64,000 bases of DNA from a virus. Below the pieces are notes generated by a model that saw nothing but the letters and a program-made list of their open reading frames with translations, did not search any database and was not told the origin of the DNA. The stretch's first letter is position 1, and each line of letters begins with the position of its first letter. Both the position numbers and the translations under genes were made by a program. Positions 77-14,595 of the stretch are shown here, piece by piece. Location of the stretch: IMG/VR virus record IMGVR_UViG_3300045988_066445, positions 1-64,000 of that record; one strand, written 5' to 3'.

Positions 77-101
77 CAGGGTTCGAATCCCTGTCCTTCC
101 G
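77..101 (+). pseudogene. tRNA 3' fragment (canonical T-arm plus acceptor 3' strand, no 5' partner found)
   Basis: CAGGG-TTCGAAT-CCCTG then TCCTTCC-G. No complementary GGAAGGA 5' strand within 100 nt upstream. Confidence 0.3.
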
Positions 102-106
102 CAAAT

Positions 107-180
107 ACGTCCGTACTCAAGTGGTTTAAGAGGATAGTCTCCAAAACTATTATTCCTAGGTTCGAATCCTAGCGGGCGTG
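107..180 (+). tRNA. tRNA-Trp (anticodon CCA)
   Basis: Acceptor ACGTCCG/CGGGCGT, D-arm CTC-AAGTGGTTTAA-GAG, anticodon stem ATAGT/ACTAT with loop CTCCAAA, T-arm CTAGG-TTCGAAT-CCTAG. No encoded CCA. Confidence 0.8.
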
Positions 181-203
181 CTCATTTATTAATAAATTAG
201 ATT

Positions 204-434
204 ATGAAAAAGTTAACAATTATTTCATTGGGGTTGGCTCTATTGTGTAGCTGTTCTAGACCGACTCTTGAGTCAGAGGCAACAAAGAGTGTTCCAGATG
301 GAATCATTCCGTTTGATGCTGTGATTCACTTTCGGTACAAAAACCATTATTACATTAAGTTTACTGAGGGATATGAAAGATCTAGAACCAGTGGAGTAGT
401 TCATGACCCAGATTGTAAGTATTGTAGGAGATGA
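204..434 (+). CDS. small lipoprotein (signal peptide with lipobox Cys: LLCSCS)
   Basis: N-terminal hydrophobic signal ending in Cys. First gene of the NfeD/flotillin operon. ATG preceded by the AATTAGATTATG motif. Confidence 0.45.
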   Translation: MKKLTIISLGLALLCSCSRPTLESEATKSVPDGIIPFDAVIHFRYKNHYYIKFTEGYERSRTSGVVHDPDCKYCRR

Positions 435-949
435 GTGAAGTGTATTATCTTTTGTCAGCCATTTCATATGGCATTTTTCTAGTTCAATTCATCTTATCTT
501 GGTTTGGTGGAGACACTGACTTAGATGTTGATTTAGATGGAGAACTAGATATGAATGTGAGTGATATTGTCTCATTTAAGGGATTAGTCCATTTTATAAT
601 GGGAGCTAGTGGATGGCTTTGTGTTAAGCAGTCCGTATCTCATTCTGTAGAATGGTATGATTATCTAATCGCATTAGTATGCGGTATTCTTTTCGTGGTT
701 ATACTTTACTACTTATATAAACTCTGTTTAAAACTCCAGCATCAAGTTATTCCAGAAGAGGGTGAAGCCTTGATTGGAAGGGTTGGAATTATCACAGTTC
801 CTTGTGAAAACCATTTCTTCATTACTATTGAAGTAAATGGAGGTTCTGAGGAAATTGTAGCCTATCCAGAAGTCCCAAAAATGGGATATATGGTTGGTAC
901 TCGTGTGGTAATTTCTAAATTTGAGAATGGAAAGTATTATTTTAACTAA
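431..949 (+). CDS. NfeD-like membrane protein (short form: N-terminal TM helices plus C-terminal OB-fold beta domain)
   Basis: Two to three hydrophobic helices at the N-terminus. C-terminal LIGRVGIITVP...FFITIEVNGGSEEIVAYPE...GTRVVISKFENGKYYF resembles the NfeD OB-fold. Start overlaps the upstream ORF and the gene sits directly upstream of the SPFH gene. Confidence 0.5.
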   Translation: MSEVYYLLSAISYGIFLVQFILSWFGGDTDLDVDLDGELDMNVSDIVSFKGLVHFIMGASGWLCVKQSVSHSVEWYDYLIALVCGILFVVILYYLYKLCLKLQHQVIPEEGEALIGRVGIITVPCENHFFITIEVNGGSEEIVAYPEVPKMGYMVGTRVVISKFENGKYYFN

Positions 950-967
950 AAAAAGAATTTTTAAAAG

Positions 968-2926
968 ATGACAACAGAAACTCTTATTGTAGCAGGTGTT
1001 ATTGTATTGCTAGTAGTTTTAACCTTTATTGGACTTTTGTCACGGTATCGTAAGTGTGCTAGTGATGAAATCTTGGTTGTGTTTGGTAAGGCAGGAAAGA
1101 AGAAGGTAGTTAACGAGAAGACTGGTAAAACGGAGGAAGTTATACTGCCGTCTAAAATCATCCACGGCGGAGGTACATTCGTAATGCCTATCATTCAAGA
1201 CTGGGCTAAAATGTCCTTGAAACCTATTCAGATTCAGGTAATGGTAGAGGGAGTGTCTAGCCAAATGATTAAGGTTAGGATTCCTGTGACATTAACTACT
1301 GGTATAGGAACCGATCAAGTACTAATGCAAAACGCTGCAAGCAGATTCTTAACAGCTAAAACTTCTGAAATCTCAGACCAAATCAAGGATATTCTCATCG
1401 GTGAAGTGAGAAGCTTGATGGCAACAATGACGATTGAGGAAATAAATGCTGATAGAATCAAATTTATCGGCAAGGCAAAAGAGAATATTGAAACTGAGTT
1501 GAACAAGGTAGGTTTCAGTATTATCAATATTAACAACGCTGATATCTCGGATGATGCGAACTATATCAAGAATCTTGGTCAGAAAGCTGCAACTAAAGCT
1601 CTTGCTCAGGCACAGGCTGACATTGCAGAAGAGAAGAAGAAAGGAGATATTCAGATTGCAGAAACCAACAAACAGCGTGAGATTGCCGTAGCCGATGCTG
1701 AAAAGGAAAGAGAAACTACAGTTGCTCAAACTAAGCAAGAACAGGAAGTAAAGGTTGCTGAGATTAATCAGGAGAAAGCTATTCGCTTGGCAGAAGCAGA
1801 AAAGAACAAACAAGCTGGTATCGCTGAACAGAAGGCGGAACAAGAAGCTAGTATTGCTCGTGCAAACACTCAAGCAGAATCAGCTAAAGCTGAAGCTGAA
1901 TCTCAGAGAATAGCTAATGTAGCGAAATCCGCTTCAGAGGCTGCTTCTAAGAAAGCTGCTGCTGACGCAGAAGCAGAAGCTAATGTAGCTAAAGCTAAGG
2001 CAGAAGCAGATTCTAAGAAAGCTGAAGCTGAAGCTCTGAAGCAAACTCGTATTGCTCAAGCTAAGCAAAAGCAGGAAGCAGACACTCAGAAAGCAATTAA
2101 TGAGCAAGAAGCTGCTACTGCAGAGTATGAGTCTCAGAAGAGAATTAAGGCTGCAGAAGCTGACAAGCAAGCTGGAGTAGCTGAGCAGAAAGCAACTATT
2201 GAAGTATCAAAGGCAAAAGGAGAAGCTGCACAGGCACAAGCTGAAGCAGAAAAGGTAGCTGGTACTTCTAAAGTAGAAGCAAGAATGGCTGTAGCCAAAA
2301 CAGAACAAGAACGCCAGATTGAGGTTAACGAAGCTGCTGCTAAGGCAGAGGAAGCAAAACTTCAAGCTGAAATGATTGTTCCTGCTCAGAAACAAAAAGA
2401 GAGAGTAACTATTGAAGCAGAAGCAATTAAAGCCAAAGCGGTATTGGAAGCAGAAGCAGAAGCTGCAAAGATTTTGAAAGAAGCAGAAGCGAAAGCTGAC
2501 GCTACTAAACTGCAGTTAGAAGCAGAGGCAGAAGGTACTCGCAAGAAATTGCTTGCTGAAGCTGAAGGTAAGAGAGCATCATTGATGGCAGAAGCTGATA
2601 AGGTTCAAGCTATCGAAATGGCTCCAGCCTTGGCAGTTGAGAAGATGATTGAATCTGGCTTGACTCCACAAATGGTGGTTCAGTACAAGACTGTTGACCA
2701 ATTGGCCGGTATTGCTCAGGCATCTGCTCAGATGTTTGAACACATTCACCTTGGACAGGTTACTGTTTATGGTAATGAGAATACCGCTGGTAATTTCATG
2801 GCTAAGACTGCTGAGAACTTGAATCCTGCTCTTGACTTGTTACGTTCTATTCCTTTCGCTGACACAGTAAAGGAAATGTTCGGCAAGAAGCAAGCAGAAG
2901 CTACTGAGTTTGAAGAAGTGAAGTAA
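968..2926 (+). CDS. SPFH/band-7 flotillin-like protein (YqiK/FloA-like) with a very long Ala/Glu/Lys/Gln-rich coiled coil
   Basis: N-terminal TM helix, SPFH core (ILVVFGKAGKK...HGGGTFVMPIIQ...), then about 400 aa of EAEAKA heptad-like repeats and a flotillin-type C-terminus. Followed by a hairpin terminator. Confidence 0.75.
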   Translation: MTTETLIVAGVIVLLVVLTFIGLLSRYRKCASDEILVVFGKAGKKKVVNEKTGKTEEVILPSKIIHGGGTFVMPIIQDWAKMSLKPIQIQVMVEGVSSQMIKVRIPVTLTTGIGTDQVLMQNAASRFLTAKTSEISDQIKDILIGEVRSLMATMTIEEINADRIKFIGKAKENIETELNKVGFSIININNADISDDANYIKNLGQKAATKALAQAQADIAEEKKKGDIQIAETNKQREIAVADAEKERETTVAQTKQEQEVKVAEINQEKAIRLAEAEKNKQAGIAEQKAEQEASIARANTQAESAKAEAESQRIANVAKSASEAASKKAAADAEAEANVAKAKAEADSKKAEAEALKQTRIAQAKQKQEADTQKAINEQEAATAEYESQKRIKAAEADKQAGVAEQKATIEVSKAKGEAAQAQAEAEKVAGTSKVEARMAVAKTEQERQIEVNEAAAKAEEAKLQAEMIVPAQKQKERVTIEAEAIKAKAVLEAEAEAAKILKEAEAKADATKLQLEAEAEGTRKKLLAEAEGKRASLMAEADKVQAIEMAPALAVEKMIESGLTPQMVVQYKTVDQLAGIAQASAQMFEHIHLGQVTVYGNENTAGNFMAKTAENLNPALDLLRSIPFADTVKEMFGKKQAEATEFEEVK

Positions 2927-2931
2927 TCACA

Positions 2932-2990
2932 GCGAAGGGGCTTTACAAAGAATTAGTAAAGTATAACAAAAGCCCCTTCGCAATTTGGAG
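2932..2990 (+). terminator. putative rho-independent terminator after the flotillin gene
   Basis: 13-bp perfect stem GCGAAGGGGCTTT/AAAGCCCCTTCGC followed by AATTT. Confidence 0.5.
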
Positions 2991-3074
2991 GTATGGGTGA
3001 GCGGTCTAAACCAGAGTCCTGCTAAGACTCCGGGCCTCAAAAGGGTCCCGCTGGTTCGAATCCAGCTGCCTCCG
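2987..3074 (+). tRNA. tRNA-Ser (anticodon GCU), type II with long variable arm
   Basis: Acceptor GGAGGTA/TGCCTCC, anticodon stem GAGTC/GACTC with loop CTGCTAA, long variable arm CGGGCCTCAAAAGGGTCCCG, T-arm CTGG-TTCGAAT-CCAG. Confidence 0.8.
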
Positions 3075-3098
3075 CATTAACTTAAATAATTATTAGAT

Positions 3099-3518
3099 AT
3101 GAGCGAATGGAAATACATAGATTCAATCGCAGAGCTATCCGATTTTGAATGTGCACACTGCGATACAAGAGATTTTTATATGGTTACTTATGATACTATA
3201 AGTCAACCTTGGAAAGTATTAAATAAATTCCTGAAAAAGAATAGAATTATAGTAGAACAATGTTCGTTTAATAAGGACGAGATTATTCCCTTACTAAAGA
3301 GTTTAGAGACTGCATCGGGTGGTGAGGGAGACTGGAGGCATTTGGTATTGGATTCTATTGACCATTGGTGGATAAAGTATATCCGTTTCCAGAGACTTAG
3401 TAATGGACAATACTTTTGTTTTACTGATTCTGCTGATACTATTATTCCGCTTTATAAGGATAAACTTAAGGCAGAGTTCGTGAATCAGGATGAAAATCAT
3501 AAAGTTCATGGAAGATAA
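3099..3518 (+). CDS. hypothetical protein
   Basis: 139-aa ORF preceded by an ATTAGAT-ATG motif. No recognisable domain. Confidence 0.4.
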   Translation: MSEWKYIDSIAELSDFECAHCDTRDFYMVTYDTISQPWKVLNKFLKKNRIIVEQCSFNKDEIIPLLKSLETASGGEGDWRHLVLDSIDHWWIKYIRFQRLSNGQYFCFTDSADTIIPLYKDKLKAEFVNQDENHKVHGR

Positions 3519-3744
3519 AATTGAAATATTTAGAAGCCTTCATAAAGAATTTCTCAGTATGCTTCTAGATGATACTTGGCTATGTGAGGAGCCTATTGAA
3601 CTAGCAGAAGTAGAAGCGTGTTGGCAGTGGGCTATAGAAGTAGGAGAAGAAGTTGTTCCGTTAGAAGACTTTGAAAAAGAATTTAAGTTTTCTTTACAGG
3701 ATTTAACTAACTGGTGGAACAAAAAAATACTAGAATTGGAATAA
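3490..3744 (+). CDS. hypothetical protein
   Basis: 84-aa ORF overlapping the upstream gene end. Acidic C-terminus. Confidence 0.35.
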   Translation: MKIIKFMEDKIEIFRSLHKEFLSMLLDDTWLCEEPIELAEVEACWQWAIEVGEEVVPLEDFEKEFKFSLQDLTNWWNKKILELE

Positions 3745-3941
3745 CTGATAGTTGAAAGTGCACTTAGTAGACTATCGACTGCATAGACCCCTTATGTAGT
3801 ATATAGAGTGGATGGCTGAGGGATAAATCCAGCAAAACGCTATTAGTAGTGCGCAATGCTAATAACCTTAAGTCCGTTGAAGTCGCCTTAGTACGTGCGT
3901 AACATACTCGGAAATGCATAACTTGCTTTGGGACTCTTTTC

Positions 3942-3986
3942 CATAGATGAAGGTTTTATCCGTTTACTTCATCTATGCCTTTACAT
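3942..3986 (+). terminator. hairpin plus T-run (possible terminator or processing site upstream of tRNA-Phe)
   Basis: 11-bp stem CATAGATGAAG/CTTCATCTATG then CCTTTACATT. A second overlapping inverted repeat ATCCGTTTA/TAAACGGAT. Confidence 0.4.
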
Positions 3987-3999
3987 TATAAACGGATAT

Positions 4000-4076
4000 G
4001 GGACGATAGCTCAGTAGGTAGAGCGCTGGACTGAAAATCCAGGACGTTAGCGGCAGTTCGATCCTGCCTCGTCCCA
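4000..4076 (+). tRNA. tRNA-Phe (anticodon GAA)
   Basis: Acceptor GGGACGA/TCGTCCC, D-arm GCTC-AGTAGGTA-GAGC, anticodon loop CTGAAAA, T-arm GGCAG-TTCGATC-CTGCC. Unusually long (9-nt) variable region. Confidence 0.75.
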
Positions 4077-4140
4077 CTTGCATTGTGTGTTTTTCATGGT
4101 AAATAGACTTAGTGGTTCGTGAGAATAGCTGAGCCAAAAT

Positions 4141-4212
4141 TGGGTTATGGTGTAATGGTTAGCACTACAGATTTTGATTCTGTCAGTCTAGGTTCGAGTC
4201 CTAGTAGCCCAA
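4141..4212 (+). tRNA. tRNA-Gln (anticodon UUG)
   Basis: Acceptor TGGGTTA/TAGCCCA, anticodon stem ACAGA/TCTGT with loop TTTTGAT, T-arm CTAGG-TTCGAGT-CCTAG. Confidence 0.75.
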
Positions 4213-4226
4213 CAAACTTAACAAAT

Positions 4227-4553
4227 ATGGAAGAGATAGAAAAGATTAATATCATTAACAAGAGGCTTAGGCAAAAAGAAGCCAGAGCAGACTGGAAATG
4301 GGTAAATGATGGCAAACAATTTGGTTGGGCACGTGGTTGCTCTAAGAACCGTAAATCTAAGAGAGGATATGAGGTAGGAACTAAGGAAAGTAGGAAGCTT
4401 GAGAGGAAATGGTTTAAAAATATACACCACAAGATATTATTTCATATTCCATTAACCGAAGAAGAGTCTAACAGTCTTGAATTTCATTACAAATGGAGAG
4501 AACAAACTCATATGATTCAAGCGTTAATTAACGATATACGTTCTAAATTATGA
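4227..4553 (+). CDS. hypothetical basic protein (start moved downstream of tRNA-Gln)
   Basis: The track ORF 4119..4553 overlaps tRNA-Gln. The first Met after the tRNA (MEEIEKINIINKRL...) is at 4227. Lys/Arg-rich. Confidence 0.4.
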   Translation: MEEIEKINIINKRLRQKEARADWKWVNDGKQFGWARGCSKNRKSKRGYEVGTKESRKLERKWFKNIHHKILFHIPLTEEESNSLEFHYKWREQTHMIQALINDIRSKL

Positions 4554-4726
4554 AGCCAGAAGATTATAGAAAAGTTGTCAAGTTTTGTGACAAAGGTAAA
4601 TGTAAAGTTCGAGAAAATTCATTCGGAGTTTGTTGGTGTGTTAGGTGTGGTAAGCTACACTCTGATGCAGCAGAAAAGTTAAAACCAGAAGAACAAATAA
4701 TAGTAAGAAATGAGAGTAATAATTAA
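4550..4726 (+). CDS. small zinc-ribbon protein (58 aa, CxxC...CxxC)
   Basis: ATGA start/stop overlap with the upstream gene. MKPEDYRKVVKFCDKGKCKV...CWCVRCGKLH carries four Cys in two pairs. Confidence 0.35.
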   Translation: MKPEDYRKVVKFCDKGKCKVRENSFGVCWCVRCGKLHSDAAEKLKPEEQIIVRNESNN

Positions 4727-4925
4727 TAGTTGTTTAGTTACAGAATTGTTTGCCAATTTTCAAACTTCTATAGATAGAAAAAGTATCATAGGAGAAACAC
4801 ATTCCGTAGAAGAAACGGAAAAGTTGATGCTAGAATTTGCTAAGTTTAATATAAAACCAAGCGATGTTCTAGGGAAGACGGTAATATTTGAATGCAAATC
4901 AATAAGTGCATACGAATAATATTTA

Positions 4926-5000
4926 GGACCTATAGCTCAGTCTGGTCAGAGCAGCTGACTCATAATCAGAAGGTCGGGGGTTCAAAGCCCTCTAGGTCCA
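4926..5000 (+). tRNA. tRNA with CAU anticodon (Met, fMet or Ile2-lysidine)
   Basis: Acceptor GGACCTA/TAGGTCC, D-arm GCTC-AGTCTGGTCA-GAGC, anticodon loop CTCATAA, T-arm GGGGG-TTCAAAG-CCCTC. Confidence 0.75.
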
Positions 5001-5005
5001 CACTT

Positions 5006-5074
5006 GAGCCTACCTAATTGGAATAAAGGTCTAGACGCGTTGGCTAGATTTGGGTTCAAGTCCCAATAGGTTCA
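5006..5074 (+). tRNA. atypical tRNA-like element (69 nt; reduced D-arm, enlarged 9-nt anticodon loop)
   Basis: Acceptor GAGCCTA/TAGGTTC pairs 7/7 and the T-arm TTGGG-TTCAAGT-CCCAA is canonical. D region is only about 15 nt and the anticodon arm TCTAG-ACGCGTTGG-CTAGA has a 9-nt loop. Identity unresolved. Confidence 0.35.
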
Positions 5075-5211
5075 CATAATCAGATACGGAGAAAGTAGTA
5101 CAACCGAAAAGACATATCAAGTAATATAGGTTGCCACGAGTATAGTCGGCTTATATTGCGCTCCATGGAACGGATATGAGGTCTGATTTCAAATAATTAA
5201 AAATAAAACTT

Positions 5212-5622
5212 ATGAATTATCAGTATTTTGGATTGTTCTTAGATGAACCAACTAGAAACAAACTTATGCAAGTTATCATTGGAAATCCCATCATTTGCAA
5301 TCTGGTGTTCCAAAGAGGAAGTACTATTTATTTAGACCATTGCACTCTTCTCCATAAAAATCAACATGAAGAAAAGATGGCTAATGACCTACAATATCGT
5401 ATAGATGGTAATTTTCGATTAATTGTAAACAAAATAGGGATTTCTGAGAAAGCAATAGCTTTTGGAGTAGAATTGGGAGACCAATATCTGCCTTGTGCAA
5501 ATGCTAAACCTCATATCACTATTTGTACAATCAACAAGGGTAAACCAGTAGATAGCAATGGTATTGCAACTTGGATTCCAATTCCAGAATTTAGTATTTA
5601 TTGCCATCTTAAAGTAGTATAA
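5212..5622 (+). CDS. hypothetical protein
   Basis: 136-aa ORF with no recognisable motif. Confidence 0.4.
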   Translation: MNYQYFGLFLDEPTRNKLMQVIIGNPIICNLVFQRGSTIYLDHCTLLHKNQHEEKMANDLQYRIDGNFRLIVNKIGISEKAIAFGVELGDQYLPCANAKPHITICTINKGKPVDSNGIATWIPIPEFSIYCHLKVV

Positions 5623-5623
5623 T

Positions 5624-6085
5624 ATGTGGGGAAGAAAGAGTCCTATAGAAGAATATCTGGACAAGCATCCAGACAGCACTCTAAGAGAGTATAATGAATA
5701 TGTTAAGGAAGAAGAACGGAAGAGACACCAAGAGAAGGTAGATAGCGATAATAGACATAAAGCACTACTTAAAAGCTATATAGGAAAGTGTTTCAAGATA
5801 GACTTCAATGGTATGTCAACAATGTTTTTCAGACTTACATCCGACCCAACAGATCCACGAAGTAGTAGAATCGAAGAGGATGCCTATTCAGTTTATATTG
5901 ATTCATCTAAGGTACATATGGAATTAGAAAAGAAGAGGTATATTAATATAACGTGGCTTCCTGGTCAAGAAGAGTGGTATGGAAACTCTCACAAAGTTTT
6001 TCAAATATCTGAGGAAGACTTTAATAAGGTAGTAGAGAAATATAACGAAATGGTTAAGGTTGCTAAAGAAATAAAAGCAACCTAA
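5624..6085 (+). CDS. hypothetical protein
   Basis: 153-aa ORF, charged; abuts tRNA-Leu. Confidence 0.4.
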   Translation: MWGRKSPIEEYLDKHPDSTLREYNEYVKEEERKRHQEKVDSDNRHKALLKSYIGKCFKIDFNGMSTMFFRLTSDPTDPRSSRIEEDAYSVYIDSSKVHMELEKKRYINITWLPGQEEWYGNSHKVFQISEEDFNKVVEKYNEMVKVAKEIKAT

Positions 6086-6090
6086 CAGTT

Positions 6091-6172
6091 GGGGTAGTGG
6101 CGGAATTGGTAGACGCGCTAGACTTAGGATCTAGTGCCGCAAGGCGTGAGGGTTCGAGTCCCTCCTACCCTA
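6091..6172 (+). tRNA. tRNA-Leu (anticodon UAG), type II
   Basis: Acceptor GGGGTAG/CTACCCT (G1-U72), anticodon stem CTAGA/TCTAG with loop CTTAGGA, long variable arm GCCGCAAGGCGTG, T-arm GAGGG-TTCGAGT-CCCTC. Confidence 0.8.
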
Positions 6173-6357
6173 CAACTTTTATTTATTAAATAATATGAAA
6201 GAGTTAAGTGAAATTATTCAGGAAATGGTAGACAATGGCAATTCCATGGGTCAAATGGACCTAAAACTGCCATAGTGTTTGTTACAGAGGCTTACGAATC
6301 TGGTATAGAAAAGGCTCGTTCTCTCATAACTAATGAACATAACGAGGAGGATTACTA

Positions 6358-7770
6358 ATGACCGTAGAAGAATTAGAAGGTAAGCTGACTAGTATCTACC
6401 ATGAATTTGCTGAAACAATCTCTGAAAATGAGACTGATGAGCAAATAGTTGCCCGTTCTAAAGAGTGGTTTGTAAAAAGACTCTCAGAGGAAACTGATAA
6501 CAAAGAAGCTATAGAATCTATAGCTAATCAATTAGTAGGATGTCTCAAACAGGCATCTGTTTTAAGTAACCTAGAAAAAGAAAAAATGAACAAAGTTTGG
6601 ATGTGTTCTGGGTCTACATATACCCAGGTAAGCTCAGGCTATAGCGTTGAGCAGTCTCTCCCAGTTGGAATCTACAGTATTTGTCTGACAATGACAGGTT
6701 ATCACCTAGACAGATATGCGGATAAGTTTGTATTCCCGTACAAAATGTATGGTTTGCAGAACGAGTTTATTGACCATGTAATTAAGACGTATCACGCTAC
6801 AGAAGGCAATCTCGGAATTATGCTTACTGGTACAAAGGGCACTGGAAAGACTGTTACCGCTAAGGAACTAGCTAACAAGCTAAATCTGCCCATCATTATC
6901 GTAAAGGATATGGGAGACCATAATCAATCTATGATTGAGTTCCTTTCTGGTATTGAAGGAGATTGCATTCTGTTCTTGGATGAATTTGAAAAGAATTTCA
7001 GTGAATCGGATTCTACTATCTTGCAAATCATGGACGGTGTTTACAACTCTAAGTATCGCAAGGTTTTCCTGCTTACTACTAATGCCATGACCATCAATGA
7101 GAATATGGTAGGACGTCCGTCTAGAATCCGTTATGTCAAGGAATTTGGCAACTTGGATTTGAAGGTTGTGAACGAATATCTGGACGACGCACTTCAAGTG
7201 CCGGAAGCTCGTCAAGATTTGCTTGATTTCATTGATTCTTTGACTATATCTACTATTGATATTCTCAAAACTATAGTTAATGAGGTCAATATTCACGGTA
7301 TAGAAGGATTGAGAAGAGCTAAGAGCTTCTTCAATGTAGTAACTAATGAGTATGACTATTCCTGCGTCAGAGGTTATGCATATGCTTATGAGATTTCTGC
7401 TGATAAGAATAAATTCTCTATTGAAGAGTTCTCTAAAGCTGTTGAGAGATTCAACAATCCGATGCCGAAGCCTATTGTAGACGATGAGGATAACTGTACT
7501 GTTGAGGAAAGAAAAGCTCTTAACGAGTATTATGAATATCGCCGCCACAATTTCCACAATCTGTCATATTACTATGTATCTTCGGATATTAAGTTCGCAA
7601 ATCTGGCAGTTGGAGATGACTTCTATGATGACGAAATTATTGCGATTGACAAGAAACTAGGAATCGTAGTTACTAAAGACGGCAACGAAATCAATTACTA
7701 CTGGATTAAAGATCCAAATAGTAAACCGTCTCTGTATCGTAGAGGTGCTTACAACTCTTTGGTACTATAA
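6358..7770 (+). CDS. AAA+ family ATPase
   Basis: Walker A GTKGTGKT, Walker B ILFLDEFEK, sensor-1-like LLTTNAM, arginine finger region GRPSRIRYV. Unusually for this window it has a strong AGGAGGA Shine-Dalgarno before the ATG. Confidence 0.65.
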   Translation: MTVEELEGKLTSIYHEFAETISENETDEQIVARSKEWFVKRLSEETDNKEAIESIANQLVGCLKQASVLSNLEKEKMNKVWMCSGSTYTQVSSGYSVEQSLPVGIYSICLTMTGYHLDRYADKFVFPYKMYGLQNEFIDHVIKTYHATEGNLGIMLTGTKGTGKTVTAKELANKLNLPIIIVKDMGDHNQSMIEFLSGIEGDCILFLDEFEKNFSESDSTILQIMDGVYNSKYRKVFLLTTNAMTINENMVGRPSRIRYVKEFGNLDLKVVNEYLDDALQVPEARQDLLDFIDSLTISTIDILKTIVNEVNIHGIEGLRRAKSFFNVVTNEYDYSCVRGYAYAYEISADKNKFSIEEFSKAVERFNNPMPKPIVDDEDNCTVEERKALNEYYEYRRHNFHNLSYYYVSSDIKFANLAVGDDFYDDEIIAIDKKLGIVVTKDGNEINYYWIKDPNSKPSLYRRGAYNSLVL

Positions 7771-7775
7771 AACTT

Positions 7776-7797
7776 GGGGAGCTAGTCTCCCCTTTAT
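7776..7797 (+). terminator. rho-independent terminator
   Basis: GGGGAG-CTAGT-CTCCCC followed by TTTAT. Lies between the AAA+ gene and tRNA-Cys. Confidence 0.55.
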
Positions 7798-7871
7798 GTC
7801 TAGATGCCCGAGCGGTCTAAGGGAACGGTCTGCAAAACCGTGTTTCGTGGGTTCGAATCCCACTCTAGATT
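7798..7871 (+). tRNA. tRNA-Cys (anticodon GCA)
   Basis: Acceptor GTCTAGA/TCTAGAT (G1-U72), anticodon stem ACGGT/ACCGT with loop CTGCAAA, T-arm GTGGG-TTCGAAT-CCCAC. Confidence 0.75.
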
Positions 7872-7891
7872 CTACACTAATCTTATTGCTT

Positions 7892-8320
7892 ATGGATAGA
7901 GAATTAAGAAGAGAACTTTCTAAAAGAAAGTGGATTTCGAGAGCTAAAAAGGTTTACAACGCTTGCGGTAAATTTTACGTACCTGTTGCCGGGATTAAAG
8001 CCAATGTAAGGTATAATGTTCCTATAATAAGGAATAAGGCGTTGAAGGTCTGTGAGTCAATTACGGATTTCCTTGATAGTTCTAAATACGCAAAGATGCT
8101 TAAGAATTGCACTTCTCCTTATAGAAGCAGAATGATGCAATATGAATACAAGAAAGAGAATAGAAAGGATAGATATAAAGCAAAAAGAGATATTCAAGAA
8201 GGTATTCAAGAATATGAATCTAGGGACAATCTTTCGTGTTCATCCTGCATTTTCTATGATAAAGGCTTTTGCGAAAAGGGATTATTAATGACTGAAAACT
8301 GCCCAGAATATTGGGATTAA
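7892..8320 (+). CDS. hypothetical protein with Cys-rich C-terminus (start moved downstream of tRNA-Cys)
   Basis: The track ORF 7745..8320 overlaps tRNA-Cys. First Met after the tRNA is at 7892 (MDRELRRELSK...). C-terminal CSSCIFYDKGFCEKG...CPEYW motif. Confidence 0.4.
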   Translation: MDRELRRELSKRKWISRAKKVYNACGKFYVPVAGIKANVRYNVPIIRNKALKVCESITDFLDSSKYAKMLKNCTSPYRSRMMQYEYKKENRKDRYKAKRDIQEGIQEYESRDNLSCSSCIFYDKGFCEKGLLMTENCPEYWD

Positions 8321-8323
8321 AGT

Positions 8324-8683
8324 ATGGACAAGTATATTAATGGAAGTTTAGTAAAGAGAGTTTTAGTTTTTAAAACTAGAAAGCATCCCGATTGGGTACA
8401 TTATGTGGACGATTACCGATTCTTGTTTTGGAAAATACATCGAGATTATTGGTATTATTGGGACCCATGTTTTGGAACTTATACGGAAGAAAAAATGATT
8501 TCATCTTTAGAGAAGAGATATGCCTTCTACAAGGATGGAATAGTATATCAGAAACCTCATATCATTTTAGAGTTCTCTAAAAGACATGATGAATCTATCT
8601 ATTTTGATAGTGACGAAGAAATGGAGGGATGGTTTGAATCCTTCATGGAAGAATTTGGAAAACCGTTTATTTACATAGACTAA
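8324..8683 (+). CDS. hypothetical protein
   Basis: 119-aa ORF rich in aromatic residues. Confidence 0.4.
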   Translation: MDKYINGSLVKRVLVFKTRKHPDWVHYVDDYRFLFWKIHRDYWYYWDPCFGTYTEEKMISSLEKRYAFYKDGIVYQKPHIILEFSKRHDESIYFDSDEEMEGWFESFMEEFGKPFIYID

Positions 8684-8804
8684 TACCTTTATCCCAGTTT
8701 AGAGCTTAGCTCAAATAGTGAATAATAGTAGCTATTGGTTAAAACGAGGTGGAGTGCCAGACGAAAGACTGGAATTAACATAGTTTAACTTTGAATCTCC
8801 GACT

Positions 8805-9149
8805 ATGCAGAGTATTATTATGGCAGAATTGATTTTCTTAGCTAATGGAAGATGTGACTTGAAAATGCACGCACCTATCAAAAACTTTAAAAGAGTTGAG
8901 GTAGTAAAGCACAAAAGAAACTTCTTCAAGGTGTTCGTTGACCGCAACGACAGCGTTTATGACGTGAAGCGTTGCACAGTTATCACATGGAAAACCGTAG
9001 ACAACGGTAAAAGAAAATTGAATGTTCCAGACAAAGTTGAGGAGGTACGCGATGCCAATCTCTTCGACAAAATCAAGGGAAATCCATTCAAGATCGCACT
9101 TACTAAAATAATTGGCGAAATTGAAGCCCAAGAATTACTACATTCGTAG
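8805..9149 (+). CDS. hypothetical protein
   Basis: 114-aa ORF. Confidence 0.35.
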   Translation: MQSIIMAELIFLANGRCDLKMHAPIKNFKRVEVVKHKRNFFKVFVDRNDSVYDVKRCTVITWKTVDNGKRKLNVPDKVEEVRDANLFDKIKGNPFKIALTKIIGEIEAQELLHS

Positions 9150-9185
9150 TAGCGTTTAGGAGAGTATCGCATAACTCTCCTCAAT

Positions 9186-9260
9186 GCAGATGTGGTGTTA
9201 ATGGTTTGAGCACGTCAGACTTCCAATCTGAAGGGGAGAGTTCGAGTCTCTCTATCTGCA
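9186..9260 (+). tRNA. tRNA-Gly (anticodon UCC)
   Basis: Acceptor GCAGATG/TATCTGC, anticodon stem TCAGA/TCTGA with loop CTTCCAA, T-arm GAGAG-TTCGAGT-CTCTC. Confidence 0.8.
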
Positions 9261-9265
9261 CATTT

Positions 9266-9337
9266 GTAGGTATAGCACAACGGTTAGTGCATCGGCTTGC
9301 CATGCCGAGGATGTGAGTTCGATTCTCATTACCTACT
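9266..9337 (+). tRNA. tRNA-Gly (anticodon GCC)
   Basis: Acceptor GTAGGTA/TACCTAC, D-arm GCAC-AACGGTTA-GTGC, anticodon stem TCGGC/GCCGA with loop TTGCCAT, T-arm GTGAG-TTCGATT-CTCAT. Confidence 0.8.
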
Positions 9338-9343
9338 CAATAT

Positions 9344-9424
9344 TCCGATTTAGCTCAGTCTGGTTAGAGCGTCCGCATCCAAAACATCAGCGGGAGGTCA
9401 GGGGTTCAAATCCTTTAATCGGAA
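9344..9424 (+). tRNA. tRNA with a 13-nt anticodon loop (stem TCCGC/GCGGG; loop ATCCAAAACATCA; CCA or CAU anticodon possible)
   Basis: Acceptor TCCGATT/AATCGGA pairs perfectly, D-arm GCTC-AGTCTGGTTA-GAGC and the T-arm are canonical. The anticodon loop carries about 6 extra nt. Confidence 0.45.
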
Positions 9425-9428
9425 CAAT

Positions 9429-9502
9429 CTCGGTGTACCAGAGTGGTTTAATGGCTAGGACTGCAAATCCTTAGTTCGTCAGTTCGAATCTGACCACCGA
9501 GT
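9429..9502 (+). tRNA. tRNA-Cys (anticodon GCA), second copy
   Basis: Acceptor CTCGGTG/CACCGAG, anticodon stem TAGGA/TCCTT (U-U at base) with loop CTGCAAA, T-arm GTCAG-TTCGAAT-CTGAC. Confidence 0.65.
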
Positions 9503-9508
9503 CAATAT

Positions 9509-9588
9509 AGTGGAGTAGAGAAGTTGGTCATCTCGCTAGGCTCATAACCTAGAAATCGTCATAAACGGTTCGAATCCTACCTCCGCAA
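9509..9588 (+). tRNA. tRNA-like gene with CAU anticodon and a degenerate T-arm (possible tRNA pseudogene)
   Basis: Acceptor AGTGGAG/CTCCGCA (6/7 paired), D-arm GAGA-AGTTGGTCA-TCTC, anticodon stem CTAGG/CCTAG with loop CTCATAA. The T-loop TTCGAAT is present but its flanks AACGG/CCTAC do not pair and the region is 6 nt too long. Confidence 0.3.
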
Positions 9589-9833
9589 CTAAACTCCTTT
9601 TGTGGCTCTGAATTAGATTAATTATTAACAATTTTAAACTTTGATGTTATGAAGAAAGTAATTAATGTTGTGAAGAAAGCTGCTAAGTGGTATTTTGAAC
9701 AGAGTTCTAAGAGCTATACATGGTTAGTTTCTGGAACTATTCCGCCTCCTTATAGAGGTCTAGAGTAAAGATACTACTAAAAGGTAAGTACCAAAGGGGT
9801 ACTTATCTACACCCGTGGAGAAAATTAACTATT

Positions 9834-9903
9834 GGGGTATAGTTCAAAGGTCAGAACTTTTGACTGTTAATCAAAGAATCATGGTTCGAGTCCATGTGCC
9901 CCA
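9834..9903 (+). tRNA. tRNA-Asn (anticodon GUU)
   Basis: Acceptor GGGGTAT/GTGCCCC, anticodon stem TTTGA/TCAAA with loop CTGTTAA, T-arm ATGG-TTCGAGT-CCAT. Confidence 0.7.
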
Positions 9904-9925
9904 GCTATTGACCTTATATTAGATT

Positions 9926-10084
9926 ATGCATCAGTGTGATTATTGTTGTTGGTACTACAGTGGAAATTGTGATTGTCCATATGTAATGAAGAAACAAGCG
10001 TGTGAAAATGCTTTGAAAACTAAAGAGAGAAATGAAAGACCTATTAGAAAAGTACAAAATGTTTCAAACTCCAAAACTAGCTAA
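9926..10084 (+). CDS. small Cys-rich protein (52 aa)
   Basis: MHQCDYCCWYYSGNCDCPYV... ATG preceded by ATATTAGATTATG. Confidence 0.3.
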   Translation: MHQCDYCCWYYSGNCDCPYVMKKQACENALKTKERNERPIRKVQNVSNSKTS

Positions 10085-10433
10085 TGAGATTTCATGGAAA
10101 GACATGAAGGAATTTAACTCTTATATGAAAGAAGTAGTTCGTGATTATAAGATTAAACAGGCTAAATCAATTCAGAGTGCTAGAAACGTAATAATATCCT
10201 GACCTGGCAAGGTAAAAATCCATTCGGGGTTTAAGTTGAAGCCAGTCCCTGCGGAATCATAAAGACCTTTTCTGATACGATAGTCGATGAACTGAGAGAG
10301 TAGTATGGTTGCGGACTTATGCTACTAGAACATGATTTAAACAAAAAAAACTTATCTGGTGATGTTAGGTTATGGAATCCTAACAGTGGAAATTTATGGG
10401 TATGTCACCAATTAAAAAGAAAATCCCAAAAAT

Positions 10434-10506
10434 GGGCCGTTAGCTCAAATGGCTAGAGCGCTGGTTTTGCACACCGGAAGATAGGGTTCGAGTCCCTGCG
10501 TGTCCA
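10434..10506 (+). tRNA. tRNA-Ala (anticodon UGC) with G3-U70 but a poorly paired inner acceptor stem
   Basis: D-arm GCTC-AAATGGCTA-GAGC, anticodon stem CTGGT/ACCGG with loop TTTGCAC, T-arm TAGGG-TTCGAGT-CCCTG. Acceptor GGGCCGT versus CGTGTCC pairs only the outer 4 positions, including G3-U70. Confidence 0.55.
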
Positions 10507-10715
10507 CAAACTTTATTTAAAAAATTATGAAAGATATGTAGTTGTAGTAAATTATCACCCAGCTAATGCTCCTCAAAATTATGAAACTGATTGCCAAATC
10601 TTCTTAGACAAGAAACAGGCAGAGAAGTATAAAGAGGCTAAGGAAAAAGAGTTTCCTATTAGCTGGGGAGGAGAGTATAATCATTGTAAACTAATTAAAA
10701 AGCATTTGTAATATC

Positions 10716-10787
10716 GCGGGATGATAGCAGAGGTAGCTAGTCAGGCTCATAACCTGAAGGTCGTCGGTTCGAATCCGACTCCCGTTA
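10716..10787 (+). tRNA. tRNA with CAU anticodon (Met or Ile2), acceptor stem register ambiguous
   Basis: D-arm TAGC-AGAGGTA-GCTA, anticodon stem TCAGG/CCTGA with loop CTCATAA, T-arm GTCGG-TTCGAAT-CCGAC. 5' CGGGA pairs with 3' TCCCG. Confidence 0.6.
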
Positions 10788-10818
10788 CTAAGTTATTTTT
10801 AACAATTAAAATTAGATT

Positions 10819-11244
10819 ATGGATTTCAAGAATCTTACAAAGGAATCTCTTCCGAAAGAATTTCAGGAGAGAATCGAACGTTTCAATCGTTTGTTCGTTG
10901 AAGCTGGTGATGGTACATTTGAAGAAAATGACCTATTTGGTTATGAAATGGCTTGTATAAAGCAAGCCCTATCATTCTCTGAGTTTTTCAAAGAAATGAG
11001 TCTGGAGGAATGTAAAGCCTTCTATGAGAAATATCCTAGCTTATTTGGGCTGATTGAGGCTATCAAAGACAAACTTCCTTACTTTGATAATGGTCATAGT
11101 GGAAACTCTATGAGCATGAGTTGGATGCTATACAGGTGTTATAAGGAGAAACCTGAGCTTGTTCCTTATATGCATGGTTGTCTGGCTCAACTTGTTGGAG
11201 ACGAAGGTTATCATGATAATCGTTCTGATGTTCCTAAGTTATGA
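10819..11244 (+). CDS. hypothetical protein
   Basis: 141-aa ORF. ATG preceded by AAAATTAGATTATG. Confidence 0.45.
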   Translation: MDFKNLTKESLPKEFQERIERFNRLFVEAGDGTFEENDLFGYEMACIKQALSFSEFFKEMSLEECKAFYEKYPSLFGLIEAIKDKLPYFDNGHSGNSMSMSWMLYRCYKEKPELVPYMHGCLAQLVGDEGYHDNRSDVPKL

Positions 11245-11537
11245 GTGTAATACAACAAGTTTATCTAGCTGATTCTGGATGTTCTATTTATATAAAAGGG
11301 ATAAAACCAGATAAGGACAATGAATATTCTGGTGAGATTACTATAAACGGTAATCCCACTAGATTAGAAAGAAAAGAACGCTATCATATTGATGGTGGTA
11401 TGCTCGTTACTGATAGTTACCATATTCCTATGGAGTTTATAATTAGTTTTTTACAAGCTAATAATTGTGTTGAACAGAAAGAGGATGGTAAAATGTATGT
11501 TGTTCTAAAAGAAGTGGAATTTAAACTCAATAAATAA
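11241..11537 (+). CDS. hypothetical protein
   Basis: 98-aa ORF with ATGA overlap to the upstream gene. Confidence 0.4.
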   Translation: MSVIQQVYLADSGCSIYIKGIKPDKDNEYSGEITINGNPTRLERKERYHIDGGMLVTDSYHIPMEFIISFLQANNCVEQKEDGKMYVVLKEVEFKLNK

Positions 11538-12118
11538 TGTTATCAATACTTTATGACGAATACCTAAAATGGGGTTGTCCCAACTGTGGTTGTGATGCCA
11601 TTAAAGGTAGTTGTGTATCTGGAGGAGGTTTAACTTCTGGTACTTGTAGACATTGCAAGTTAAAATTTGAAGTTAGAAGCGAAAACCCAATGGGAATAGT
11701 CCAATATGGCTGCCATCCAGAAAATCCCTCAGACCCGAAATCTAAATGGGTTATGGAAAGCGCAATCAGAATTGAACATCCTAGAAAAGGTATTCCTGCA
11801 TGGAATTGGGAACCAGTTGACGAACGTCCAGAAGAAGGAGAATATTGGAACTCTCGTGGTCCTGGCTATCCAGATGTTTCTGGCTTTGTAAAGACTAAAG
11901 CTGCTGGTGAGCGTATTCTAGCTATGGTGCATGAAGTGTTAGGAACTGACAAGTGTAAGACTTATCTAGATTTCAGACCAAGTGAACCAACGTGGATTCA
12001 ATTTAAGTTCCAGTCTAGCGAGTTTGACTTAGAAAAGTTGGATAAGCTATCTAGAGAAGCTGATAGAGTAGTTACTAAGGAAATATTAAAACAGTGTTTA
12101 TATGGCAAAAGTAATTAA
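11537..12118 (+). CDS. hypothetical protein with N-terminal zinc-ribbon (CPNCGC...CRHCK)
   Basis: 193-aa ORF with four Cys in CxxC pairs near the N-terminus. Confidence 0.4.
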   Translation: MLSILYDEYLKWGCPNCGCDAIKGSCVSGGGLTSGTCRHCKLKFEVRSENPMGIVQYGCHPENPSDPKSKWVMESAIRIEHPRKGIPAWNWEPVDERPEEGEYWNSRGPGYPDVSGFVKTKAAGERILAMVHEVLGTDKCKTYLDFRPSEPTWIQFKFQSSEFDLEKLDKLSREADRVVTKEILKQCLYGKSN

Positions 12119-12359
12119 TAAGACAATCACAACACATCTTACAAATATGAAAGATGGAGATGTAGCTGAGATTGTAAATTGGTTCTGTGACGAGGAAATG
12201 GAGCCTGGAACTATAGTTCAGAGGTACGGAGATGCTTTAATTATCATTGGTGGGCGTAGCGGTCTATGCTATCCTAAGCTGTTTACTGTTGCGGATACGC
12301 GTCGTTTGCTTACTTGTAAGGTCACAATTTTGCCTCCTGGCTCAACTATAATGCTATAA
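12102..12359 (+). CDS. hypothetical protein
   Basis: 85-aa ORF. Confidence 0.35.
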   Translation: MAKVINKTITTHLTNMKDGDVAEIVNWFCDEEMEPGTIVQRYGDALIIIGGRSGLCYPKLFTVADTRRLLTCKVTILPPGSTIML

Positions 12360-12401
12360 TTTCTTTTCTCCAGTTTTCTAATCAGAGATAAACTGGAACA
12401 T

Positions 12402-12916
12402 GGGCCTACTTGGATTTGACAGGCGATTACGAATTATAAGGACGTGTAGAGCGCAATCTCTCTAAACGAAGGAAAACAATAATTGCTACTTATAGCGAAG
12501 TAAGAATGGCAGCGTGAGCTGTGGCTAATTAATAGAAATATTAATCGAGTCGGGTTAACGGAGAAGACCTAGAAACAGAAGAGGTGTACAGCAGAAGGAT
12601 GATAGAGCCACTGTGCTTAACTTGAAAGCCAAAGGTTAGTAAAGCTGAAATTCTCCATTACCTATCTATAGGTTACAAATAGGCGTTCTCCAACGTAAAT
12701 GGAGTGGTAGAGAAGAGACCCCTGGTCCTCTAAGTTTGATAGTTTGTTGTATAGTTAAGCGGAAAGGTGCTAGATGAGTCCGCTTGTAAAGAATCTAGCT
12801 CTTCTATGAAAACTATCTAAATGCTAGAACTCACTAGCTGATATAATAAAAATGAGACGCACGTTATCCTTGTAACGAGGGTTGTTTGGACACGGGTTCG
12901 ACTCCCGTTAGGTCCA
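12402..12916 (+). ncRNA. ssrA: tmRNA (SsrA-like), phage-encoded
   Basis: 5' GGGCCUACUUGGAUUUGACAGGCG closely resembles the canonical tmRNA 5' end GGGGCUGAUUCUGGAUUCGACGGG. 3' end is GGACACGGGTTCGACTCCCGTTAGGTCC-A, a T-arm plus acceptor. Acceptor GGGCCUA/UAGGUCC closes with the G3-U70 alanine identity pair. Candidate tag frame GCT ACT TAT AGC GAA GTA AGA ATG GCA GCG TGA at 12485-12517. Confidence 0.7.
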
Positions 12917-12922
12917 CATAAT

Positions 12923-12996
12923 AGGGCTATAGCTCAACTGGTTAGAGCACCACACTGATAATGTGGAGGTTATCAGTTCAAGTCTGATTAGCCCTA
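12923..12996 (+). tRNA. tRNA-Ile (anticodon GAU)
   Basis: Acceptor AGGGCTA/TAGCCCT, D-arm GCTC-AACTGGTTA-GAGC, anticodon loop CTGATAA, T-arm ATCAG-TTCAAGT-CTGAT. Confidence 0.8.
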
Positions 12997-13042
12997 CAAA
13001 ACCGCCAGCTCACGCGGTATATAAGAAAGGATTGCCGGACTC

Positions 13043-13073
13043 GCAGGTGTAACGAGATAAATACCTGCATTTT
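13043..13073 (+). terminator. hairpin plus T-run
   Basis: GCAGGT-(14 nt)-ACCTGC followed by ATTTTCG. Confidence 0.35.
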
Positions 13074-13111
13074 CGAGGCTGTGGTGTAATGGCTTGCATA
13101 TCACACTGTCA
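13074..13111 (+). pseudogene. 5' half of a tRNA-Asp-like gene (acceptor 5' strand, D-arm, anticodon 5' stem and loop CTGTCA)
   Basis: CGAGGCT-GT-GGTGTAATGGCTTGCAT-A-TCACA-CTGTCA, then the sequence diverges into the HNH gene leader. Pairs with the 3' fragment at 13769-13805. Confidence 0.5.
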
Positions 13112-13133
13112 TTAAAATTAATTAAACTTATCT

Positions 13134-13685
13134 GTGAATCGAGAACAATCTCTTAAATTGTATTATGAGAATCCTAACCACTGTAAGGAATGTGGTAAGG
13201 TAATCGAAGTACTAGATAATCAGAGGGTCGCAGATGTGAGGAAGAAACAGTTTTGTAGTCATTCGTGTGCTGCTTCTTACAATAATAGAGGTAGGATAAA
13301 GCACGATGAAAACAAGATATGTCCTAGATGTGGTAAACCTAAGCATAAAGATTCAGAAATTTGTCGTAGTTGCTGGGAAGAACTTAATGGAATTGGTAAC
13401 AAAACATTAGGTTATTATACATCTGGGCAGAAGTACTTATCATCTAAATGTCAAGAAATAAGGACTAATGCTCGTAGAGTATTAGAAAGTTCCGAACGTG
13501 AGAAAGTATGTCAATATTGTCATAATCATGAATTTGATGCAATACTTGAAGTACATCATCTTAAAGGAATATTAGAATTTGACGAAGGCACTCTTATTAA
13601 AGAGATTAACAATGAGAATAATTTAGTATGGTTATGTCCGAATCACCATATTATGTTAGAGAAGGGTTTAATTAGTCTGGAGTAA
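13134..13685 (+). CDS. HNH homing endonuclease with multiple Cys4 zinc fingers
   Basis: C-terminal HHLKG...NNLVWLCPNHH is an HNH motif. Several CxxC pairs upstream. Embedded in the tRNA cluster. Confidence 0.75.
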   Translation: MNREQSLKLYYENPNHCKECGKVIEVLDNQRVADVRKKQFCSHSCAASYNNRGRIKHDENKICPRCGKPKHKDSEICRSCWEELNGIGNKTLGYYTSGQKYLSSKCQEIRTNARRVLESSEREKVCQYCHNHEFDAILEVHHLKGILEFDEGTLIKEINNENNLVWLCPNHHIMLEKGLISLE

Positions 13686-13696
13686 TCCAGTTACAC

Positions 13697-13805: not shown

Positions 13806-13811
13806 CTATAT

Positions 13812-13885: not shown

Positions 13886-13913
13886 CTTTAACTATTAATT
13901 AGATTAATTATTT

Positions 13914-14588: not shown

Positions 14589-14595
14589 CCAGGAT

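Follow-up and report, generated by a model that had tools for sequence, protein, structure and literature searches.

A long-maintained gene pair encoding a flotillin-family protein and a predicted NfeD-like partner in crAss-like phages

INTRODUCTION

Why does a crAss-like phage carry a flotillin, and is the gene a working part of the phage or host DNA in transit? The question is raised by positions 204 to 2,926 of a 64,000-nucleotide stretch, positions 1 to 64,000 of the IMG/VR virus record IMGVR_UViG_3300045988_066445 (the whole stretch is hereafter called the window). Three open reading frames (ORFs) are co-oriented there on the plus strand, exactly where an earlier note on this DNA had placed an operon for a lipoprotein, an NfeD protein and a giant flotillin: ORF1 (204..434, +), a predicted lipoprotein of 76 aa; ORF2 (431..949, +), a divergent, short NfeD-like partner of 172 aa; and ORF3 (968..2926, +), a flotillin-family SPFH protein of 652 aa. 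ORF1 shares 4 nt (ATGA) with ORF2, and 18 nt separate ORF2 from ORF3. The explanation favored here, at a probability of roughly 60% for the whole of it, is that the phage maintains its own copy of a Bacteroidota flotillin operon, which would build a separate inner-membrane cage with a membrane-stabilizing role.

RESULTS AND DISCUSSION

A flotillin-family protein and its predicted NfeD-like partner

The reading of the third gene as an SPFH/flotillin protein is borne out by profile searches. Pfam Band_7 (PF01145) matches aa 47 to 223 of ORF3 with 64.6 bits (cut-off, 23.6; E = 1.5e-17), and human Flotillin-1 and Flotillin-2 of the solved cages 9bq2 and 9l3g in the PDB are matched at E of ∼1e-18. 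The NCBIfam FloT model NF058507 is also matched (E = 5e-41, 141.2 bits), but its equivalog cut-off of 700 is not reached; judged by these scores, ORF3 is a flotillin-family protein and not a FloT ortholog. The predicted architecture consists of a transmembrane (TM) segment at aa 5 to 25, the SPFH domain at ∼43 to 223, a helical region rich in A, E, K, and Q at ∼199 to 562, and a C-terminal region of ∼90 aa (563 to 652). The hydrophobic anchor at aa 5 to 25 is followed by R26-Y-R28-K29 and falls within a helix (aa 2 to 30) of the AlphaFold 2 (AF2) model; by the positive-inside rule, we infer that the soluble part is cytoplasmic.

The extended, EA-rich helical segment (aa ∼199 to 562; 1562..2653, +), delimited by composition and AF2 secondary structure, is roughly 350 aa long, shorter than the coiled coil of about 400 aa given in the earlier note, and its AEKQ fraction is 0.52 to 0.76 across aa 201 to 550. 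Helices are predicted at aa 199 to 304, 314 to 469, and 481 to 562 in a low-confidence model from which the secondary structure alone was used. The region aligns to the helical region of Flot1 (9bq2, 9l3g), which is about half as long, such that aa 61 to 290 and 352 to 530 of ORF3 both map to Flot1 20 to 344. A recent duplication was considered as the source of the extension and rejected, since self-BLAST of ORF3 detected no internal repeat.

For the second gene, a membrane protein with TM helices and a C-terminal OB-like (oligonucleotide/oligosaccharide-binding) domain had been proposed, and the predicted architecture agrees with this proposal: TM1 spans aa 2 to 24, TM2 and TM3 form a hairpin (aa 49 to 70 and 75 to 102), and a five-stranded OB-like domain follows at aa 118 to 171. 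The AF2 model of ORF2, built from a 27-sequence alignment (predicted local distance difference test [pLDDT] score, 78), likewise contains three TM helices and a C-terminal five-stranded beta domain, so that the predicted C terminus has the five-stranded, OB-type beta-barrel of the NfeD fold. The lysines K97 and K101, which follow TM3, would set the topology by the positive-inside rule. The ORF2 family is large, comprising 1,048 clusters at 50% identity.

ORF2 itself has no match in Pfam, NCBIfam, PHROGs, or PADLOC, and searches of the PDB with phmmer and with a first profile returned only TM-helix noise. With a broader profile of the ORF2 family, the best PDB match is YuaF (E = 0.017), in register across the whole domain. 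The Pfam NfeD model PF01957 appears in the family below threshold only, in 4 of 27 and 1 of 35 members (5 of 62; E between 0.0015 and 0.04). Thus, of the Pfam check suggested in the earlier note, the Band_7 half held, with a score above the cut-off in ORF3, and the NfeD half did not. An ortholog in BFVD/UniProt (virus sp. ctML55), 76% identical to ORF2, bears the name "NfeD-like C-terminal domain-containing protein." The ClpP-type serine protease domain of the long form of NfeD is absent from both the Pfam scan and the model of this 172-aa protein. Identity with YqiJ was considered and rejected, given an hhalign probability of 0.2% against YqiJ and no match of PF21001 (YqiJ_N) or PF07290 (YqiJ_OB) in ORF2 or its relatives. 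ORF2 is filed here as NfeD-like by predicted fold, architecture, and context, its sequence scores lying below the family threshold.

One feature kept family-wide in ORF2 lies at aa 28 to 55, where an invariant acidic loop, D30-x-D32-x-D34-x-D36-G37, precedes SFKGxxHF. The loop is DxDxDG-like and recalls Ca2+-binding loops.

The pair is maintained in a clade of large crAss-like phages

That the window is phage DNA is confirmed by its large ORFs, which belong to phage replication and nucleotide metabolism (PolA, NrdD, the nicotinamide phosphoribosyltransferase NAMPT, DNA and RNA ligases, and helicases), with a PolA 40 to 47% identical to those of the crAss-like phages crAss001 and IAS virus. It derives from a crAss-like (probably Zeta-like) phage of ∼185 kb. 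Dozens of relatives in IMG/VR measure 165 to 193 kb, so that the term "jumbo phage" used in the earlier note does not apply to these crAss-like phages; among GenBank phage records, the sole near-identical one is a 5.7-kb human fecal fragment. The window, with a GC content of ∼36%, opens with a tRNA block followed by a forward replication block with polA, a layout that agrees with what has been published on Zeta crAss-like phages (PMC7886860; PMC12386605). On the features taken to define the Zeta group, namely, crAss-like replication genes, a genome of 155 to 190 kb, and a tRNA block at the start together with a forward replication block, the phage would belong to the Zeta-like crAss group, the window containing no structural genes for a tree of the terminase large subunit (TerL) or the major capsid protein (MCP).

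Conservation was followed in a close set of 52 IMG/VR loci, with flotillins 58 to 100% identical to ORF3, and in a distant set of 11 inspected loci. Of the 52 close loci, 50 have an undamaged ORF2-flotillin pair; the exceptions are L045, where ORF2 is missing and, uniquely, the flotillin N terminus is truncated, and L026, where ORF2 is broken. All 11 distant loci retain the pair at 46 to 59% identity, with partners of 165 to 180 aa and flotillins of 613 to 694 aa. Flotillin relatives are encoded in at least 276 viral stretches, and among 50,697 GenBank phages a full-length relative was found only in the Epsilon crAss-like phage csAssE-Sib. The ratio of nonsynonymous to synonymous substitution rates (dN/dS) is 0.13 to 0.19 for ORF2 and 0.06 to 0.13 for the flotillin, within which the helical region (0.06 to 0.15) is less constrained than the SPFH domain (0.04 to 0.07), the most conserved part. 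Judged from these comparisons, the pair is a long-maintained component of the phage clade, kept under purifying selection, and not a recent insertion. The synteny kept in relatives and the overall dN/dS of 0.06 to 0.19 thus dispose of the recent host-derived insertion against which the earlier note had guarded, and neither of the two outcomes named there as refuting its reading came about.

Cellular and viral counterparts

The closest cellular counterpart is a pair of Bacteroides finegoldii genes, WP_007757712 (165 aa, "hypothetical protein") and WP_007757713 (548 aa, flotillin family), with the gene order and spacing seen in the phage. The partner is 34% identical to ORF2 over the full length (E = 2e-29), the flotillin is 39% identical to ORF3 end to end (E = 6e-119), and the two proteins share with the phage pair the TM/acidic-loop/OB and TM/SPFH/helical/C-terminal architectures. 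Unlike the phage pair, these cellular genes lie among housekeeping genes, have no tRNA flanks, and lack an upstream lipoprotein gene. The B. finegoldii flotillin is ∼104 aa shorter than ORF3, and the whole difference falls in the helical region.

Flotillins of the Zeta-like phages are 602 to 694 aa long, compared with 548 to 566 aa in Bacteroides and Epsilon, and alignment gaps, whether against phage relatives or against the host protein, are located in the helical region, where indels vary even between close relatives. The ∼100-aa lengthening of this region is, on the alignments, a lineage-specific trait, long but not extreme. The descriptions "giant" and "well beyond typical" were accordingly too strong: the 652 aa of ORF3 exceed the 548 aa of the Bacteroides flotillin and the 553 aa of YqiK by ∼100 aa.

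Two records touch on the cellular copies. The 177-kb sequence that holds the B. finegoldii pair (L177; NZ_OY725925.1, "plasmid 23" in PLSDB) was considered as a resident phage and rejected; its housekeeping genes (truA, purC, ubiE, aroE, and prfA) show that it is a chromosomal fragment. In a Lachnospirales chromosome, an ORF2-family gene adjoins a flotillin; in a Lachnospirales metagenome-assembled genome (MAG; L094, 5001 to 6563), the flotillin that neighbors an ORF2-family gene is split by an in-frame stop into 77 and 383 aa, which may reflect a pseudogene or an assembly error.

Comparison with characterized systems places the phage pair apart from each of them. In Bacillus subtilis, where the yuaFGI operon encodes YuaF (NfeD2) and FloT (YuaG), ORF3 scores 141 bits against the FloT cut-off of 700, and the ORF2-YuaF match is marginal. 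The FloT protein of B. subtilis is 509 aa long. In Escherichia coli, a membrane partner, YqiJ, likewise comes ahead of a protein of the flotillin family, YqiK; YqiK is 25% identical to ORF3 (E = 8e-16), with the C-terminal region included in the alignment, whereas YqiJ, a Pfam YqiJ_N/YqiJ_OB protein, has no detectable similarity to the ORF2 family. The solved SPFH cages also include E. coli QmcA-YbbJ (8z5g) and HflK/C-FtsH.

Among phages, csAssE-Sib (OR575929) carries the same pair, annotated as "transmembrane protein" and "flotillin family protein." Its ORF2 homolog is 37% identical to that of the window (E = 1e-28), and the 566-aa flotillin shares 38% identity with ORF3 over 94% of the length but 63% with the Bacteroides gene; the pair lies in the replication module beside an acyl carrier protein, with no tRNAs. 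Because of this difference in identity, the two phage copies may stem from separate captures or from an ancient and a recent one, and the Epsilon copy is probably a separate or later acquisition. Other phage SPFH proteins (the Vibrio phage KIT04 flotillin, PHROG 200, PhiSH19, GIB1, and X1) are shorter, at 263 to 473 aa, and an NfeD-like partner has been described for none of them; all that precedes the KIT04 gene is an 82-aa TM protein that lacks an OB domain.

The putative lipoprotein gene is exchangeable and the module is mosaic

The first gene had been called a small lipoprotein, and its predicted signal-peptide features are in keeping with this: an n-region MKK, a hydrophobic core, and a lipobox L-x-(S/G)-C17 are present, by inspection, in all ORF1 alleles. 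The N terminus of ORF1 reads MKKLTIISLGLALLCS-C17, the mature protein would comprise ∼59 aa, and the C-terminal DPDCKYC is conserved. No match was found in Pfam, PHROG, NCBIfam, or PADLOC. Of the 52 close loci, only ∼22 have a homolog of ORF1. In the sister subclade (clade A), the slot is instead filled by a nonhomologous, 72-aa signal-peptide/Cys protein (MKRIRLICMMAVVAIVTAVCCSFTS...) that overlaps ORF2 by the same 4 nt, and in distant clades unrelated genes occupy it. Because of this restricted distribution, the swapped slot in the sister clade, and the lack of such a gene in the B. finegoldii operon, ORF1 is, as far as gene content tells, an exchangeable accessory cassette outside the conserved two-gene core. 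The three-gene operon of the earlier note thus contracts, as a conserved unit, to two genes. ORF1 would be cotranscribed with the core without being mechanistically required by it, and it probably has a separate, fast-swapping, envelope-facing function, for example, receptor masking or superinfection exclusion. The 72-aa allele, at ∼5243 to 5461 of L004 and also present in L003 to L012, L016, L022, L025, L032, L036, and L044, represents a swap of alleles in a slot for a small exported protein.

Sliding-window identity also places a recombination crossover (1000..1150, strand not applicable) in the flotillin gene. Positions 230 to 1086 are 97 to 99% identical to clade B (L018), and from position 1087 onward the rest of the flotillin gene and the downstream genes are 98 to 100% identical to clade A (L004). 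The switch of clade at 1086/1087 puts the crossover within the 5' part that encodes the SPFH domain, and the mosaic is visible at the protein level too, with ORF1, ORF2, and the flotillin 5' end set against the remainder. On this pattern, the window is a natural recombinant of two subclades.

Proposed role and competing explanations

Because a homologous pair is present on the B. finegoldii chromosome, at 34 and 39% identity, the phage pair is read as a copy of a Bacteroidota operon. ORF2 and ORF3 would both be anchored in the inner membrane of the host and expose their soluble domains to the cytoplasm, as suggested by the positive-inside rule and the solved SPFH cages. The flotillin would oligomerize into a dome-shaped cage above a patch of membrane, and ORF2 would be the cognate partner inside this cage. 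With longer helices, this cage would be taller or larger than that of the host, and the phage module would stand on its own (orthogonal), with little likelihood of mixing into the cages of the host. Least certain of all is the role: most likely, the cage would stabilize or reorganize the host inner membrane and its protein quality control during infection, at a time when host synthesis is compromised.

Several points weigh against this proposal. We infer cage assembly, topology, and cage size from the solved cages, and the AF2 monomer of ORF3 (pLDDT, 53) is too poor for a fold search or for geometry, helix packing included. The Pfam Flot C-terminal domain (PF15975) is undetected in ORF3 even at E of ≤1, whereas it is found in YqiK and in the csAssE-Sib and B. 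finegoldii flotillins, all of which align with ORF3 through the C terminus. ORF2 reaches no NfeD sequence threshold (the PF01957 gathering score), and hhalign reveals no similarity to YqiJ. The host is likely Bacteroides, an assignment drawn from the crAss-like affinity and the Bacteroides homolog, not from CRISPR spacers or culture. Finally, membrane protection is a candidate role among several on an equal footing.

A bolder and doubtful extension is that the phage flotillin forms a vault, made taller than and orthogonal to the host cage by the helical wall (longer by ∼100 aa) and the codiverged NfeD-like partner, that serves as an infection-specific membrane compartment, with helix length tuned over 602 to 694 aa. 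If so, it could shield a patch of membrane or its proteins from abortive infection (Abi) effectors or proteolysis, or it could be a platform for phage processes.

Subversion of the host by mimicry is likewise unlikely. Here, the pair would coassemble with or displace the host flotillin, or it would cage a membrane protease of the host (FtsH, for instance) and thereby alter the turnover of membrane proteins of host or phage. Cross-interaction is conceivable given the homologous pair in the host lineage, and the SPFH domain is the part under the tightest constraint. FtsH is caged by HflK/C, and the flotillins of B. subtilis associate with FtsH, which speaks for this possibility. However, the phage flotillin has its own codiverged partner, 34% identical to that of the host, and a helical region longer by ∼100 aa, both of which make mixed cages unlikely, and no protease or FtsH-related gene is adjacent to the module.

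Similarly low credence is given to a function in conflict, that is, superinfection exclusion or membrane protection against depolarizing or permeabilizing Abi effectors, with or without the lipoprotein. Two nonhomologous small exported protein or lipoprotein alleles are swapped in one slot between near-identical phages, the recombination crossover lies inside the module, and the early genomic position fits as well. Diversification of this sort is typical of conflict loci, and small phage lipoproteins are classical exclusion factors (T5 Llp and phi80 Cor). Yet the two-gene core evolves slowly under strong purifying selection, unlike typical arms-race genes, and in most relatives the variable lipoprotein is unlinked to the core. 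A known defense-system identity for the module was sought in PADLOC and rejected, as no model was matched by any of the three proteins at E of ≤0.1.

Rather less probable is the view that ORF2 is a flotillin-associated membrane protein unrelated to NfeD, in which a small beta domain has reached an OB-like fold by convergence. The marginal and subthreshold matches of its family to YuaF and PF01957 bear on this view, as do the predicted NfeD architecture and the genomic context. The idea of a passenger, a host-derived moron without a role in the phage life cycle, is largely refuted and very improbable: the clear host homolog, the 63% identity of the Epsilon copy to the Bacteroides gene (which suggests host-to-phage transfer), and an operon GC content of 0.39 to 0.40, slightly above the window mean of ∼0.36, would fit it, but synteny is kept across phages with flotillins differing by up to 54%, selection is purifying, ORF2 is disrupted or missing in only 2 of 52 close loci, and the GC excess is accounted for by Ala/Glu-rich coding.

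Prior annotation and significance

Flotillins were described in the earlier note as not a known phage function, which is correct only as regards function. The proteins already carry database labels ("flotillin family protein" for csAssE-Sib and KIT04 in GenBank, "flotillin" at JGI, and NfeD-like in UniProt/BFVD), and SPFH/Band 7 ORFs have been listed in lytic phage genomes since 2011, with no role given (PMC3220722, PMC13239085, PMC13384950). No functional study of a phage flotillin was found in the literature on SPFH proteins of phages, crAss-like phages and jumbo phages, on csAssE-Sib, or on superinfection exclusion, and flotillin goes unmentioned in the publications about the Epsilon and Zeta groups of crAss-like phages and about the crAss-like virome. 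The module is not a new kind of system; it is a well-conserved pair whose flotillin has lengthened in this lineage, in a phage group that matters, and its value is that of a lead for experiments rather than the discovery of a principle.

The crAss-like phages are the most abundant human gut viruses, and their coexistence with Bacteroidales hosts is poorly understood. That a deep clade, comprising the largest of the crAss-like phages, retains the pair under strong purifying selection, parallel to a host copy, points to deliberate manipulation of the inner membrane of the host during infection. In addition, the analysis brings to light a large family of NfeD-like proteins, partners of flotillins, to which Pfam is blind and whose sole Bacteroides ortholog checked is a "hypothetical protein" at NCBI. 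Furthermore, the function of bacterial flotillins is unsettled, and the phage series of helix lengths (602 to 694 aa), together with a dedicated partner, could be used to test how length relates to cage geometry.

A structured hairpin follows the flotillin gene

The strong hairpin that had been proposed to close the operon is real. It is situated downstream of the flotillin stop codon and ahead of the next tRNA (2932..2981, +), as identified by folding and by comparison with relatives, and consists of two arms (2932 to 2944 and 2969 to 2981) that form a perfect 13-bp stem around a large, 24-nt loop (dG, -23 kcal/mol; z = -4.9). Changes in the stem include a compensatory G-C to A-U replacement in L022 and L045 and a G.U intermediate in L014 and L043. 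Distant relatives have wholly different stems in the same place, in every case 3' of the flotillin stop and 5' of the next tRNA. By this pattern of substitution and replacement, the hairpin is under structural selection. A canonical intrinsic terminator was considered and rejected, given the 24-nt loop and a tail, AAUUUGG, without a U-tract; a terminator scan did not report it. A tRNA lies within ∼50 to 100 nt 3' of the hairpin in L004, L018, L037, L051, L141, L149, and L172, and the hairpin probably marks or stabilizes the mRNA 3' end after processing of the cotranscribed tRNA, or may itself be an element of that processing. The loop motif GTAAAGTATAAC, common to several relatives, was also considered as a recurrent promoter and rejected; its 2 matches in the window, against 0.6 expected, are not an enrichment.

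The tRNA island and neighboring genes

The module is located within the tRNA island of the phage, in the early tRNA/replication block. The island (∼100-14700, all +) holds ∼20 tRNA genes with small ORFs interspersed; 17 were called by ARAGORN, and Rfam added 2 more (9344 to 9424 and 10434 to 10506). The upstream flank of the module is a tRNA-Trp(cca) (107..181, +; ARAGORN, and Rfam tRNA at 60.3 bits), and the downstream flank, 5 nt past the hairpin, is a tRNA-Ser(gct) (2987..3075, +; ARAGORN only). A tRNA-Ser(tga)/tRNA-Trp pair is also found 5' of the module in L004, L018, and L166. Suppressor tRNAs with cta (amber) and tta (ochre) anticodons lie close to the module in two relatives (L037, 10512 to 10591; L170, 5283 to 5355), which fits published reports of suppressor tRNAs and recoded stop codons in Zeta crAss-like phages.

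Matches to "genomes" in MAGs (Gastranaerophilales, Clostridium, and Bacteroides) were considered as evidence on the host and rejected, these being misbinned phage contigs of 140 to 186 kb. Such contigs of the clade (L091 to L093; CALUTN010000183, DXLM01000001, and CALEBD010000406) could mislead host assignment.

Elsewhere in the window, a listed GTG-start ORF (4119 to 4553, +) overlaps a tRNA-Gln (4141 to 4213); if it is a gene at all, its true start necessarily lies 3' of the tRNA. A transfer-messenger RNA (tmRNA) is located at 12402 to 12919 (+; Rfam RF00023, 64.5 bits against a gathering score of 47, E = 7e-23, full model). The tag peptide given by ARAGORN is VQQKDDRATVLNLKAKG, followed by two asterisks in that notation, and a tmRNA is also called in the relative L051 (9271 to 9645). 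A 668-aa ORF at 17045 to 19051 (+) matches PHROG 1735, which has no assigned function, over the full length (E = 6e-241); this large phage protein is highly conserved. NAMPT is encoded at 25243 to 26931 (+; PHROG 448, E = 2e-172), which points to phage-encoded NAD+ salvage. Finally, NrdD is encoded at 41792 to 43960 and the RNA ligase at 51304 to 52671.

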